Origin: Neophaeotheca triangularis
Lineage: Eukaryota
Reading direction: 5' to 3'
Assembly: GCA_054600435.1 (NCBI GenBank)
Contig: BAAIJX010000015.1
Span: forward strand, 1-64,000
Length of the DNA stretch: 64,000 bases
Shown here: positions 160-7,154 of the stretch, piece by piece
How positions within the stretch are numbered: the stretch's first letter is position 1
Layout of the letters: each line of letters opens with the position of its first letter
Notes under the pieces: generated by a model
What the model was told of the DNA's origin: nothing
The model's input: the letters and a program-made list of their open reading frames with translations, nothing else
Database searches by the model: none
Position numbers and translations under genes: made by a program

Positions 160-1342
160 TCTTTATTTTCCTTTTCTCTTTTTTCCGGGTTGAGGTGTGT
201 AAAAGTTTTGACATCAAGTTCTCGTTTGCTGACTAGCTGTCTGTGCTTTCTCCAGTGCTCTCGCAAGCCATGCAAGAGGAATTTAGGGGTTTCTCGTACT
301 CTGCCGATTTCGTCTGAAGTCATCCGAGCAGATGACGTTGATGGCTCTGTCGAGTGTGTGTGTGTGTGCTCTCTCTATCTCAAGGCACGGCTCGAAGCTC
401 GAGTGGATGGGTGGATGGTGGTGTTTTCGCAATGGAAGCTGAAACGCGGCGGATTCTGAACCACCGAGCGTGCATCCGAGGTGGTCGAATAGCGGGTATT
501 CCTGGGGTAAGAGGGGAGTCAGTGGGTTTGCGGCACGTTCTTTGAGATACCCCATGCGAAATGCTGTTTTGGAGAAGATGATGTGAGAAATCAGAGGGGA
601 GGGGGCGGGAGGGGAAAAGGCAGCTAGGTAGAGGGCAGGAGGAACGAGTGCAACGTGGGTAAATTTTGTGGGCACTTTTGTTCTGCGTACCAGAGCGGCC
701 GCCGAGGGAAAAGCGTAGATGATAGGGATCTTGGGAGTTTTTGGGGTGTCAACCGCCTACTTTATACTGGCTTCGCGGAAGAGAAGGGGGGCGGGGTGTT
801 CCTTTTTTTTTTTTTTTTTCGGTGTTCTTGTTTCTTCACGCCGAGTCAATGTGAACAATGTCATGGATGTTGGACGAGTTGAGGATTTAAGGGGTGTGCT
901 TTCTTCTCTTACTTTGTAGAGGAAGTGGGAGGTCTCAAGTGGCCAGACACATTTGGTGCGACCGGTGCTCTGTCTATCTATTCATTGATGGTTCTTTTGC
1001 TCTCAACTCTCCGACCGTCCTGCGATACTGCATGTTGCTGTGCTTGCACTCTTTGCAGAGCTCTCATCGCATCGCTTGAAACTGCAATTCCCCCCTCCCC
1101 TCCTCTCCCAACTAGCAGTTAAAATATGTACACCCGACAGACAAAGCTCTCGACACACCGGCACGATAGGTCGAGGCGTCATTAAAATCTCTTTCGTGGC
1201 TATGTACTCTAGACATTATCATCACGCTTGAGCTCTCTCCGGGCAATTGTCAAAAACGAACGCCTCCCGAATGCTTGCATACGTAGCGGGCGTACAGCTC
1301 TGTGGCTCGTCCGCTCGCAAAATCCCATCCACCACGGTGCCT

Positions 1343-1374
1343 TGCTCATGCTCATGCTCATGCTCATGCTCATG
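1343..1374. repeat. (GCTCAT)n hexamer microsatellite at the SVF1 stop codon/3'UTR
   Basis: About 5 tandem GCTCAT units; this is the source of the spurious MSMSMSMS in the unspliced ORF. Confidence 0.85.
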
Positions 1375-2630
1375 AGATGAACGTGGCCTCTGTGAAGACC
1401 TGTCCTGCCTCCTCCTTGGTCTCGCCGTCGATGGTGATCTTGAGCGTCATCTTGGGGGTGTACTAAACGTCCAGGGTCAGCAAACACATCCTTCTTCGAA
1501 TCGGCGTTTGGGGGGCGGAAACTCACCTGGTAAATATACGGCTTCGTCCCGGCGGCACCAGCGACGATCTGCTTGACGAACTTCGGCACCTCGGCCATGA
1601 CATCCACCTTATCCGTTCGCGGTCCCAAGTTCCCTCCCAACTCCGCCTTGAAACTCTTGCCCTCCTTTGTCGTGCCCTCCCAACTCCACTGTACCGCGCT
1701 CGGCTCGGGCCATTCATTTTCCGCATCCTTCTTGATCTCCGTGTGCTCGGCCTTGATCTGAGGGCCTCCAGATGCAAAAATGACTTTTCCGTCCTCCAAA
1801 ATGCCGCCCACGGCAACGCTGCTCGTGCCGTACGACGGCGGCGTCGTGTAATCCATGAGCACTGCCGAGTAGCTGGGGCTTTGGAAATTGCAAAAGTTCC
1901 ACTTAGCCGCGGCGTGGTGGGGCTTCATGCCTTGCAGAGCGTGTGCGAAGAAGCCGCGGCCATTGAAGTCCACGGCGCCGTCTTTGGTGAGCATGTTGCC
2001 CTCAACTTTGCAGCGCGGCCAGAAGGCGTGGCGCATTTTGCCCCAAGGCTTTGTCGGGTCGGTGCCGAAGGTGCTGGTGCCGTTCTTACCCACCACGAAG
2101 CCGGGAGCTTGTTTGGTGACTTTCAGGTCCACGATGCATTTCTGGCTGGTCGAAGAGCGGAGAGTGTAGCTCTCGCCATCGTCGGAGAGAATGAAGCTAC
2201 AGTTGTCGGCGTGGAAGTTGTATTTGTCTTCGCTGAAGCGAAAGTTGGTGAGGGGGTCGCTAGACCACAGGTGCGGTTTCGATGAGTCTTTGGAGAAGAT
2301 TTTGGCGTTAAATTGCGATGTCGTGCGGATGCCCATGACGTTGGAGTAGATAATCTGCGCCATGCCAATTGTGCCTTCGTTGGAGGTGAAGTAAAAGGTC
2401 TGCGTCTCGACGTTGGTACTGTCCATGACTTCCCATTTCAGGTCGGTTTTTTCGAGCTCGGTGTAGGGATTTTCTTTGGTTTGTTCGGCGACGGATTGCA
2501 GGGCGCTGGGGCCGTAGATGGGTTCGGTGATGCCGACTCTGTATGGGTAAGAAGGATAGTTAGTCAAGCGCTCAATGTAGGCGTCTGGCGAGAGGGGTTG
2601 ACCATACGCATTCTTTGCCCAGTTGAGCAT
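1370..2630 (-). CDS. SVF1: Survival factor 1 (Svf1) family protein, 3 exons
   Basis: Motifs MLNWAK...EPIYG, TNVETQTFY, HALQGMKPHHAAAKWNF, DVMAEVP...KPYIYQY and C-terminal EATFIS*. Introns 2539-2607 (in-frame, GTATGG..CTAAC..CAG) and 1463-1526. Confidence 0.93.
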
Positions 2631-2887
2631 GATGGCGGTGTCTTTGAAGGACTGCGCTGTTTGCGGTGATCAATATGAGCTGCTTGGGTGACGGGGTAGG
2701 ATTGAAGGTACGAAAGTGGTACAAGATTTGAGTATCGAGGTGTAAAGGACGTTGGAGGGGTGAGATTGATATTGAGATGTTATGTCTTTTATCAGTCAGC
2801 GGGAGGCTTCCATATTCGGCAGGATGAGGTCGCTGCAAGCTCGCACTACAAGATGTGAGGTCCCGTCGCTCGCGTTTCCCTCCAAAC

Positions 2888-2937
2888 ACGCGACGTCACC
2901 CCACATCTTCACTTTTATCGCCTTATCGCCTTATCGC
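2888..2937. promoter_or_regulatory. Candidate elements in the SVF1/H4-variant divergent promoter: ACGCG-ACGTCA (MCB/CRE-like) and 3 tandem TTATCGC (GCGATAA)
   Basis: acacgcgacgtca at ~2886-2898; TTATCGC at 2915, 2923 and 2931 with an 8-bp period. Confidence 0.4.
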
Positions 2938-3126
2938 ACTGTCGCCTTGGCTTGTGGGGGCTCTCACCTAGGAGGTAGGTGGTAGGCAACAACACCGCGA
3001 CCCCTTCCAAGGTTCACTCACTGCATGTGAACTTCACTGGAGCGCTTGAGGGCAGCGAGGAACCGAACCTCGCCTTTCTTTCTCGAACCACATTGCTACG
3101 CCAACAATCACCTCACATCGCCCACC

Positions 3127-3756
3127 ATGCCAAATATGCGTGGCATGGGTCAATCCCAAACTTCCTCGGGCGCGCCAGCTTCCAGTGCCCGTCCCTTTAA
3201 GACTTTCGCTCCATCTTCGAGGCCCGGCGCGTCAGGCGTAGGAGGGAAAGGCCTAGGGCTGGGCAAGTCAAAGACAGCCAAGCGCCATCGGTAAGCATTC
3301 GAATCGTTGGGTCAATCCATCATATTCAGCTTTGCTTCACTAAGTTCTTCGCTAACACGATGCATCATAGCAAGATCCTGCGCGACAACATCCAAGGCGT
3401 TACTCGCGGCGACATCAGACGCATGGCGCGTCGCGGCGGTGTCAAGCGTATCTCCGGCATGATCTACGGAGGTATGTCCTCAACCTCACCCACTCTCCCC
3501 ACTCAACAAACCATCCACTAACTATGCAATTTAGATATCCGCCAAGCCCTGAAGGAGCGCCTCGAACTCCTACTCAAAGACATCTGCGCCGTTGTCGAAA
3601 GCGCCAACCGCAAGACCGTCTGCACCACCGACGTCATCTTCACCCTTCGTCGTCTCGGAAACCCCATCTATGTAAGTGCAAGACGGCTCTCGAGTGTCTT
3701 TTATGGTTGCTAACGTGCCCTAGGGTTTCGGCGACGCGAACGATAAGAAGCGTTGA
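3127..3756 (+). CDS. Divergent histone H4 variant (H4v/H4E-like), 144 aa, 4 exons
   Basis: Exons 3127-3290, 3371-3471, 3535-3671 and 3724-3756 splice to ...[106 protein letters not shown]. All introns are GT-AG with a CTAAC branch point. Confidence 0.92.
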
Positions 3757-4153: not shown

Positions 4154-5506
4154 TCAGTCTCCCACCCAATGACCCTCCCAATTAAACTTCAAGCACTCAT
4201 CACCCCAACTACACCACCCAGCAACAGCGTACCTCGCAAAAACCTCCAACACCCTAACCCCTTCGCCCTCGTCACCCCCAACCAACCCCTCCAACAACCC
4301 CTTAAGACAAGGCTTCCTCGAATGCAAATCCGGCACCGCAAACAGCACTCTCCGCCTCACACTCCCACCGCTCCCCCTCCTCCCCCCAACAAGCAAAACC
4401 TCCCACGGCAGCTTCCAGCCCCCATCCACTGCGCCCACCAACTCCCCACTCTCCGTAACCTTGCCCCAGACCCACTCCTCCCTCAACTCGACCCCAAGAC
4501 TGGGGAAGAAGTCCTCCAGCACCACCTCCCTCGCGGCAAGCTTGTTCGTGACCCACACGCCCACGACCGCGTCCTCGCCGCTCTCCGCCCGGGGGAGCAA
4601 GCTCTGGAGTTGTAGGTCTAGGAGCATGTCGCGGGTTTTGGCGATTGTGGGCATGGTGGCGTAGGTGGATCCGGGGGTTTTGTGGGAGCGTTTTACGGAG
4701 CGGGAGGGCCAGGGGGGGTCGAGGAGGATAAGCTTGAAGGGTTCAGGGGCGGGGGTGGCGGTGTTGAGGGCTTGGAGGGCGAGGGAGCGGTGGAAGTGGA
4801 TTGGGGAAGTGGTGTCGCTTAGGTGGAGGGAGGAGCGGGGTGGGAGGTGGTGAGTGTATTGTTTGGGAGTGGGGTCCGTGGTGGCTGCTGCGCTAGGAGC
4901 GGTGATGGTAAGGGTCGCTGATCGGGGGAAAGGGTTTGTGATGAGGTCGTATGGTCTGAATGTAGCTAGAAACTCGGGGCTCTCTGGGTCAGTTGAGTGG
5001 AGGTGGATCTGGTAGTTTTCAGCTGCTTTGTCGTTCCTGGCGGTGGCCAGGGTGTGGAGCATTTCGTCTGGAGGCGGATGGTTCGACTTCTCCCCCACAA
5101 TCGTCGAACTGTCGGCCTCAGTAGATACTGGAGACTCTTGAGTATCGTCTTGGTTGAGTTTACGCTTCTTTGATGACCGGTGCGGGCTTCCTTCGGCGTG
5201 TTTCCTGGGAAGGCAAAAGCTACCCTGATGCTCACTCAAGACCTTCTCGAGCGCACCTTTCACCAAATTCCCGTACTCCTCACGCAAACGCAACTCCGTT
5301 GAACTGACATTTCCCATAACTTTGGCTCTCGCTTTGGCCGTCTTAGGCTCGTTTGAAGGGTAGGGCCTGGCGAGAGGCTCCGAAGAGAATATTGTTCGCT
5401 TCGAAGGACATTCTGGAATTCCCTGCGCTGCGGCAATGGATCTGGGAATGTCGATGAGAGTCACTGACTTGTCTTCAGATTGGTAGAGTATTGGCGAGTC
5501 GTCCAT
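4154..5506 (-). CDS. MT-A70 family N6-adenine methyltransferase, METTL4-like, intronless
   Basis: LILLDPPW catalytic motif, VGVWVTNK, EEWVWGKVT..GE, HSRKP, LEVFAR and GWCSWGDECLKFN. Confidence 0.88.
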   Translation of the reverse strand: MDDSPILYQSEDKSVTLIDIPRSIAAAQGIPECPSKRTIFSSEPLARPYPSNEPKTAKARAKVMGNVSSTELRLREEYGNLVKGALEKVLSEHQGSFCLPRKHAEGSPHRSSKKRKLNQDDTQESPVSTEADSSTIVGEKSNHPPPDEMLHTLATARNDKAAENYQIHLHSTDPESPEFLATFRPYDLITNPFPRSATLTITAPSAAATTDPTPKQYTHHLPPRSSLHLSDTTSPIHFHRSLALQALNTATPAPEPFKLILLDPPWPSRSVKRSHKTPGSTYATMPTIAKTRDMLLDLQLQSLLPRAESGEDAVVGVWVTNKLAAREVVLEDFFPSLGVELREEWVWGKVTESGELVGAVDGGWKLPWEVLLVGGRRGSGGSVRRRVLFAVPDLHSRKPCLKGLLEGLVGGDEGEGVRVLEVFARYAVAGWCSWGDECLKFNWEGHWVGD

Positions 5507-7154
5507 GGCTGAGGGAACGTCCTGGCTTGGGGGCTAAATTCTGGTATCGATGTCCAGTGAGCTGCGCAAGTCGTTGTCTGCAGAGATGGGTCATGTGCAT
5601 GTTAGATGGACTGGTGGAGAGCGATGTTCCGTAGTAGACGATTCGGCGTCTCTTGTTGGAATGGTTCAAATGCAGCGCCCACGTTGGTTGGTTGTTGGAG
5701 TGTAAGGTGTAGAGGGGTGGGACTTGACGAAAACGAAAACTTTACATGAGAGTGACCTATCTTCGTTCAATGGCTGTTGAGTGATCTCATATACCTACCA
5801 TGACTTGGAACGACCTTCACTCTCGAAAGCCGAATGTAGCACAGTGGCAATAGGTCGCCAACGACAATGTGAAAGAACTATTGTGACGATGGGAGATGGG
5901 AGCGTGCCTACAAGGGTCAGAGTTTGGGCGTCCTGGGCAAAATGGCCACGGGTGATGCCCCCTGACCCTACCTAGAGCTACCTGTTAGCTCTACTTCCGT
6001 ACGCTGTCACGACGCAGCTAGTAGTGCAAGAATGCCCTTCAAAGTTTCAATTAATGCTCGGTTCCAATAGAGGCGAATCATCACATGCTCCGATGGCCAG
6101 TGAAGATGGCCCAGGCCGATACCTTAACCGCAACCGAAGCTCTCATCGAGCCAACCATCTATCACGCCTCTCCTAGTAACCATTACAAGGGAAATACCAA
6201 AGCCAGAACCCAACGACATCCAATTTGTCGCTCCTTGAACATTCTATGGACTAAGGTCGACGAGTCCCCCTCGACAAGTAAAAGCACTCACACGAAGAGA
6301 AAGGGAAAGAAGAGCACCTGATGAGAGATCGAGATGCCTTGCAGAACCGACCCCACACCCCAACACGGTCCACCATTATTACCCACCTCACCTACCTACT
6401 GTACTCTCGAGATCGAACGCACGCACAGCCCTCACCGGCAAGTCTCATTGGCTGCATACCTTCCCGAAAAGGACAAGCCGCTGCTGGCAAGTTAATAATG
6501 TGGTGGAGTAATACTAGTGCCCAAGAAGGAGACGAGTCAAAAAGGTCGGCAATCGCTTCTTTCCATTAGACGTAGTGCCTCTTGTTATTAATTGTAGGGA
6601 CTCGTCTAGCACGCTACCTGGTTATCTGCAGTAGTTAGTCTAGGGGGGAAAGGAAAGGAAACGAAAGGGAAGGAAAAGAAACGCAAGCCGCTATAGGCGC
6701 CTACTTGATAGCGTGGTCGGATCGTTGGATGGCTTGCGGCCTTTTTTGTCTTAAACTTCCAACTTAACACTACTCTCTTTCACCACTTCACTTCGTCGAT
6801 AGTCGCATTTCGTTTAATCCCTTTGTGCTTCTGCATACGTTCTGACTACTAGACAGCCCGACCGACTAACCTGCCGCCCGTACTTTTGCCAGACCACTGC
6901 GTAGCCAAGCCCAAAAGCAGTCGTTGAACCCATCACTACTGTGACTCTCTGTCGTCGTGAAGACTACCACTTGTACTCCCAGAGCGACAACCACCAACTG
7001 CCAAAGCGACCATCACTCCCCTCGGGAAATCCCCAAAAGCGACAGACCTCGACCTGCAAAAGCATCCATCCTCACGACCCTACCCAAAAGCAACCCAGCC
7101 AAGCCAAAGCCCACAAGCAACAGCCACCAGCTCCACGCCATTACGACAGCCACA

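Follow-up and report, generated by a model that had tools for sequence, protein, structure and literature searches.

The window, a 64,000-nt stretch of the Neophaeotheca triangularis genome, contains an intact four-exon gene for a fungal histone H4 variant of the H4E/H4v type (forward strand, positions 3127-3756; Table 1). Synteny with svf1, intron sites, tree position and residue pattern all indicate that this is almost certainly the Neophaeotheca orthologue of the Pezizomycotina H4E/H4v genes. H4E is the product of hheA (AN12228) of Aspergillus nidulans and has orthologues across Pezizomycotina (Flipphi et al. 2024, PMC10878826); H4v (hH4v) is NCU04338 of Neurospora crassa (Carlier et al., bioRxiv 10.64898/2026.08.11.744009). 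By these accounts, an earlier description of such variants, in a sequence-only reading of the window, as poorly characterised no longer applies: H4E has been described across the subphylum and a function has been reported for Neurospora H4v.

Table 1. The H4 variant gene and its neighbourhood (window coordinates)
Feature	Position	Strand	Description
svf1 orthologue	1209..2630	-	Pfam Svf1 and Svf1_C
svf1/H4E intergenic region	2631..3126		496 bp, divergent; four HGATAR sites, three of them in an 8-bp tandem repeat
Exon 1	3127..3290	+	Start codon, 51-aa N-tail (in translation G/S/A/P-rich, GGKGLG motif at K41), K16-H18 equivalents
Intron 1	3291..3370	+	80 nt, phase 2 in the R19 codon; site also in metagenome locus L025
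Exon 2	3371..3471	+	K20 to G52 equivalents (end of basic patch, helix 1, loop 1); in the alignment, P32G/A33D, a signature of the H4E/H4v family
Intron 2	3472..3534	+	63 nt, phase 1 in codon 53; in-frame TAA inside
Exon 3	3535..3671	+	Residues 53-98 (helix 2, loop 2, helix 3); F61R, Y72V, H75S, K77N, Y88F, K91R and T96P relative to canonical H4 of the same genome
Intron 3	3672..3723	+	52 nt, phase 0 after Y98; RNA contig joins 3671 to 3724
Exon 4	3724..3756	+	G99, 6-aa C-terminal extension, stop
MT-A70 family methyltransferase gene	4154..5533	-	Single long frame, Pfam E 6e-23; convergent, downstream

Splicing of the window sequence joins the exons into 435 nt that encode 144 amino acids and a stop codon, as the sequence-only reading proposed. 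All three introns are of the GT..AG type, with the donors GTAAGC, GTATGT and GTAAGT, in this order, and the distance from the CTAAC branch site to the acceptor is 19, 17 and 14 nt, respectively; removal of intron 2 makes the alignment to H4 gap-free again. When a spliced aligner was run with a profile built from 101 other variant rows plus canonical H4, leaving the window protein out, it returned the same three introns and no others. Letter for letter, the product equals an NCBI entry, P0001, annotated as "hypothetical protein" in N. triangularis (Dothideomycetes); that entry was probably generated from the assembly to which the window belongs and so represents a second prediction rather than independent proof. 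The gene is hidden, as had been claimed, from the open reading frame track but is present, though unnamed, in the NCBI annotation. The codon bias of the core is close to that of canonical H4 (GC3 of 0.74 vs 0.71), and the gene contains neither a premature stop nor a RIP signature.

Two marine metatranscriptome runs (X1 and X2) contain small shares of the gene region. A contig in X2 (depth 3.1), placed at 85% likeness, connects exons 3 and 4 at GT..AG with 33 letters on the short side, and a contig in X1 begins exactly with the first letter of exon 4. Relative to the window, these contigs show 2 differences in 144 letters and 5 in 260 (about 98% identity) and therefore come from a near relative rather than from the window organism. 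Joint 3 is accordingly supported in a near-relative contig, and joints 1 and 2, which were also put forward for verification by RNA, lie outside the RNA cover, which reached one joint of the three. RNA contigs on exon 2 were rejected as a sign of expression because their sequence continues into canonical H4 of other organisms.

Canonical H4 is a near-invariant 102-aa protein whose gene is paired with that of H3. The N. triangularis genome encodes at least one (G000:C79:39672-40118; best candidates scored), paired with an H3 gene, compared to two canonical H4 genes as a rule in fungi (PMC10878826). Residues 16-102 of the variant align without gaps to this protein at an offset of 36. K16 is preceded by 51 residues, as opposed to 16 (with Met) in canonical H4, in agreement with the N-terminal extension of about 35 aa noted previously, and G102 is followed by six residues. 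This alignment also bears out the other residue assignments of the sequence-only reading, namely, the retention of K16, K20 and K79, with the entire K16-D24 segment unchanged, and the replacement of Y72, H75, K77, Y88 and K91 (Table 1). The identity to canonical H4 amounts to 83% over residues 17-51, 38% over residues 52-98 and 57% over the core; with this level of core identity and a gene unlinked to H3, the variant falls outside the near-invariant canonical class. It shares the DNA-contact residues with the canonical H4 of the same genome, whereas the gene of the latter is divergent from H3 and that of the variant has a long N-tail and other intron sites. A PDB search started with the variant returns histone H4 exclusively among the best 60 of 95 matches. 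Pfam detects only CENP-T_C, below threshold, and a CENP-T/S identity was rejected in view of these PDB matches. The H3-H4 and H4-H2B interactions are textbook pairs, and a monomeric AlphaFold2 model (58-row alignment; mean pLDDT 70, pTM 0.42) was set aside as uninformative because it represents a lone H4 without its partner; the model is not a histone fold, with residues 67-111 predicted to merge into one helix and an N-tail predicted to be unstructured (pLDDT 49-56).

A degenerate H4E motif retrieved 17 metagenome loci, most of them short. Of the three introns of the window gene, two sit at sites also used by H4E-type genes; the genome's own canonical H4, with introns in codons R3 and M49 (both in phase 1), has none of the three sites in common with it. 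The R19 phase-2 intron is common to the window gene and L025, and the intron after Y98 to the window gene, L020, L022 and L025, of which L020 and L022 read alike. This comparison was made without L021, L023 and L027, with a partial L012, and ignoring poorly scoring upstream introns in L015, L024 and L026. The site of intron 2 is found in none of the comparison loci, and the window gene lacks the usual intron after codon 64 that is present in ten solved metagenome loci, three of which also have the intron after Y98; both observations count against the preferred explanation. L025 has 136 nt between its R19 and codon-64 introns, which equals 32+16+88 of the published model (PMC10878826), so that, by exon-length arithmetic, the R19 intron is identified as the H4E intron i1. 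The first and last introns of the window gene are 238 nt apart, and the exon lengths given in the same article add up to 238 (32+16+88+63+21+18) in its text and to 232-235 in its legend; intron 3 is likely to be the last H4E intron (i7), with an arithmetic match that is not exact.

Several metagenome loci show features of their own. L012, L020 and L022 are H4E-type genes that, judged by eye, contain an intron immediately after the K8-equivalent codon, outside the mapped sites of the published model. L014-L017, L019, L021, L023, L024, L026 and L027 encode a set of H4 variants unlike those of Dothideomycetes: they have GDIRR and the codon-64 intron, and their basic patch is degenerate. L013 and L018 come from AT-rich (23% GC) contigs and encode a divergent H4 with GDIRR, in which TAA occurs in frame as under a ciliate-type code; in these two loci, the GDIRR motif is probably convergent.

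In Eurotiomycetes and Dothideomycetes, H4E is reported to sit between nudA and svf1 (PMC10878826). In the window, svf1 is indeed adjacent, head to head with the variant gene, 496 bp upstream. On the downstream side, nudA (dynein heavy chain) is replaced by the MT-A70 gene, and the sole DHC_N1 match in the genome is on contig C19; the nudA flank, however, belongs to the reported context of H4E and is not a property of the gene itself. Among the 17 metagenome loci, svf1 is found beside the H4E-type gene in one (L012), in tandem there vs divergently in the window, and none of the 17, most of which are short, has a match to MT-A70 or dynein. The intergenic region contains candidate GATA-factor (HGATAR) sites, three at 2915-2936 and one at 2789. 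Given that 42 of 1270 sampled windows of 496 bp contain at least four such sites, the cluster is not rare and not clearly above background. The A. nidulans hheA gene is reported to go up under nitrogen starvation (PMC10878826).

The best 120 of 1601 database matches, together with one from another search, yield 121 rows: 102 variants (less than 80% core identity to canonical H4), 16 canonical-like sequences and 3 partial ones. Removal of 12 duplicate-core rows and one mis-spliced row from the variants leaves 89, and a search of 50% representatives adds no further named rows. Among the matches listed, the core of the window protein is 72-77% identical to those of the ten closest fungal variants vs 54-58% for canonical H4s, and the Neophaeotheca variant ranks as the 13th most divergent of the 89. 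In a midpoint-rooted tree of these 89 variants and 7 canonical rows (96 rows, 86 columns), in which many forks are open, the window protein is the sister of the Saxophila and Extremus variants (support 96/82) within a 37-row group of mostly Capnodiales-type fungi (97/87), and the 7 canonical rows form a branch of their own (100/97). The sample favours sequences related to the query and does not include the reference proteins of A. nidulans and N. crassa; the class labels of the named species are our own assignments. Pseudocercospora eumusae has two distinct H4 variants (P0035 and P0095) that are far apart in the tree. Taken with the svf1 synteny and the two shared intron sites, the grouping with Capnodiales-type variants upholds the original assignment of the protein to the same kind as Neurospora hH4v.

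The Neophaeotheca variant combines a conserved H4 core with longer, divergent N- and C-tails, which is the pattern of H4E/H4v, and differs in detail from both described members. According to PMC10878826, it has in common with A. nidulans H4E the adjacent svf1, non-canonical intron sites and the conserved fold core with the basic patch. Unlike A. nidulans H4E, it retains K16 and is free of the Eurotiomycete core insertion; its N-tail is longer than the canonical one by about 35 aa as opposed to 5 aa, and its C-tail by 6 aa as opposed to 7 aa. The H4E model has seven introns and an adjacent nudA, whereas the Neophaeotheca gene has three introns, one of them at an unshared site, and no nudA. According to the preprint (bioRxiv 10.64898/2026.08.11.744009), Neurospora H4v has a long N-extension as well, and its K8- and K16-equivalent lysines correspond to K41 (within the GGKGLG motif) and K52 of the Neophaeotheca protein; its early RG dipeptide has a counterpart at R5, with no RGG motif in Neophaeotheca. 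The divergence from canonical H4 is comparable, with 57% identity over residues 20-100 in Neophaeotheca and a reported 62% for Neurospora H4v. The two proteins differ at the C-terminus, where the Neurospora protein has a unique 35-aa part, predicted to be a new element, compared to 6 aa in Neophaeotheca. Among the 89 variants from the matches listed, the median C-tail is 6 aa, and 13 of the 14 named Sordariomycete variants have 11-25 aa.

The substitutions of exon 3 affect the surface that faces H2B, as the sequence-only reading held. H4 Y72, E74, H75 and R92 are placed against H2B, and D68, D85 and Y88 belong to the same helix2-loop2-helix3 surface (PMC9659345); H75 bonds to H2B (PMC6698655), and K91 forms a salt bridge with H2B E71 (PMC8025322). 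The altered interface is, however, not a peculiarity of this gene: among the 88 other variants in the matches listed, 57 change all four of Y72, H75, Y88 and K91, 25 change three, 5 two and 1 one, so that 82 of the 88 change three or four. Conversely, D68, E74, D85 and R92 are retained in 72, 72, 81 and 77, respectively, of the 81 named variants in the matches listed, and the Neophaeotheca protein keeps all of these as well as Y98. The residues R35, R36, R39, R45, K79 and T80, which we take to be the DNA-contact set, are intact here and in 78-81 of the 81. Thus, half of the H2B surface is rebuilt family-wide and the Neophaeotheca variant is typical in this respect. Y72 varies with lineage: it is lost in Neophaeotheca and in all 58 named Pleosporales, Aureobasidium and Capnodiales-type rows, where V or I is the most frequent residue, in contrast to its retention in 13 of the 14 named Sordariomycete variants (matches listed). 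A Pfam Histone search of the genome (11 matches) reveals a single H2B and no compensating H2B variant; the H4-facing residues of this H2B, which we located by human numbering, look canonical. Term searches of PMC10878826 and bioRxiv 10.64898/2026.08.11.744009 brought up no passage on the H4-H2B surface, though their alignments or supplements may already show the changes.

With regard to function, the gene may, with somewhat better than even probability, encode the H4 used by a surveillance and silencing pathway that ATRX drives, a reading that follows from the Neurospora H4v data and the presence of partner genes in this genome. According to the preprint, Neurospora H4v associates with H3 and ASF1 in a complex, is found inside MNase-resistant particles, yet at MNase-sensitive regions, and depends on SAD-6/ATRX for all of its chromatin enrichment; it is required for the H3K9me3 silencing of a perturbed array and boosts DIM-2-dependent RIP (bioRxiv 10.64898/2026.08.11.744009). 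Binding to H3 and ASF1 and presence in nucleosomes hold for A. nidulans H4E as well (PMC10878826). In N. triangularis, one SNF2 protein among 30 genome loci inspected has an ATRX-type motif I; against the PDB it scores best with human ATRX (E 1e-80 vs 1e-55 for Rad54), and several of its relatives are named ATRX. Genes for ASF1 and DIM-5 were found in this genome, along with three cytosine DNA methyltransferases, one of which matches PDB 9bap/9baq (E 1e-131), presumably DIM-2, and another of which we take to be RID-like. Genes for ATRX, ASF1 and DIM-5 are to be expected in the majority of such fungi, and they lend the pathway little weight. Within the 64,000-nt stretch, 0 of 127 1-kb windows are positive for RIP.

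Under the ATRX-pathway reading, H4E/H4v would be scarce and independent of replication, would pair with canonical H3, would be carried by ASF1, and would be placed by SAD-6, an ATRX-like remodeller, at dynamic or perturbed chromatin, such as telomeres, rDNA, tRNA genes, repeats and foreign DNA, where it would help to start DIM-5 H3K9me3 silencing and DIM-2-type RIP. We infer that the pathway would work in the same way in Neophaeotheca as in Neurospora, and that the changed helix2-loop2-helix3 surface would loosen H2A-H2B binding. The earlier suggestion of specialised nucleosomes draws support from orthology, while the instability also suggested would be conjectural: Neurospora H4v occurs in MNase-resistant particles, though at MNase-sensitive regions. 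Against the pathway count its functional basis, which is one preprint on one Sordariomycete, the lack of an A. nidulans phenotype, the C-tail of 6 aa vs 35 aa in Neurospora and the lack of a RIP signature in the 127 windows of this stretch. A further extension, possible but doubtful, is that the distinctiveness of H4E/H4v resides in the core rather than in the tails, with a dimer-labile core carrying the ATRX-pathway signal. The aromatic and hydrogen-bonding H2B contacts (H75, Y88 and K91, and in Dothideomycetes also Y72) would be removed and the charged and DNA contacts kept, particles would readily shed H2A-H2B and be prone to form hexasomes or tetrasomes, and F61R, T96P and L97I could be marks that are read by SAD-6/ATRX or by an unknown DAXX-like chaperone.

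Another reading takes the protein to descend from H4E while working, for the most part, away from complete nucleosomes or serving some other purpose in Dothideomycetes, and contributing little to genome defence; for example, an H3-H4E dimer or tetramer on ASF1 could buffer or mark histones in nitrogen starvation. The four altered H2B-facing residues, the absence of the long Neurospora C-terminal part and the four upstream HGATAR sites fit such a role, as does A. nidulans H4E, which is scarce, goes up in nitrogen starvation and gives no phenotype on deletion or overexpression (PMC10878826). We consider this unlikely, though far from negligible: D68, E74, D85, R92 and Y98 are intact, as are the six DNA-contact residues, Neurospora H4v occurs in MNase-resistant particles, and the HGATAR cluster is matched in 42 of 1270 sampled windows.

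Two explanations that dispense with orthology or with function are both very improbable. The gene could have arisen as a separate H4 duplicate within its lineage and come to resemble H4E by convergence, in line with the unshared intron site, the displaced nudA, the divergent rather than tandem svf1 relative to L012, the reported instability of H4 trees (PMC10878826) and the absence of reference H4E sequences from the tree rows; yet svf1 is adjacent, two intron sites are shared, the core is closer to the ten nearest variants than to canonical H4s (matches listed), and the tree follows fungal groups. Equally improbable is a decaying or relaxed H4 copy, a near-pseudogene without function. Its low core identity to canonical H4, its rank in divergence among the 89 (matches listed), the weak RNA signal and the loss of the family in several lineages (PMC10878826) point in that direction, but the frame is intact, the three introns are good, a near relative has spliced RNA, GC3 is high without RIP, and the changes follow the family consensus rather than being scattered.

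A literature search for Neophaeotheca and histone found no paper. The gene adds one member to the described H4E/H4v family, and its own significance is small, the family having been described and the protein already deposited, unnamed, in NCBI. The gain is comparative: among the matches listed, no other part of the fold has changed as much across the family as the H2B-facing surface, and most Dothideomycete members lack the Neurospora C-terminal element. Together, the changed surface and the missing element indicate residues that may govern histone choice by ATRX in fungi that have neither H3.3 nor DAXX, and, if the core does carry the signal, the short-tailed Dothideomycete form would be a natural test of whether the Neurospora C-terminal element is dispensable.
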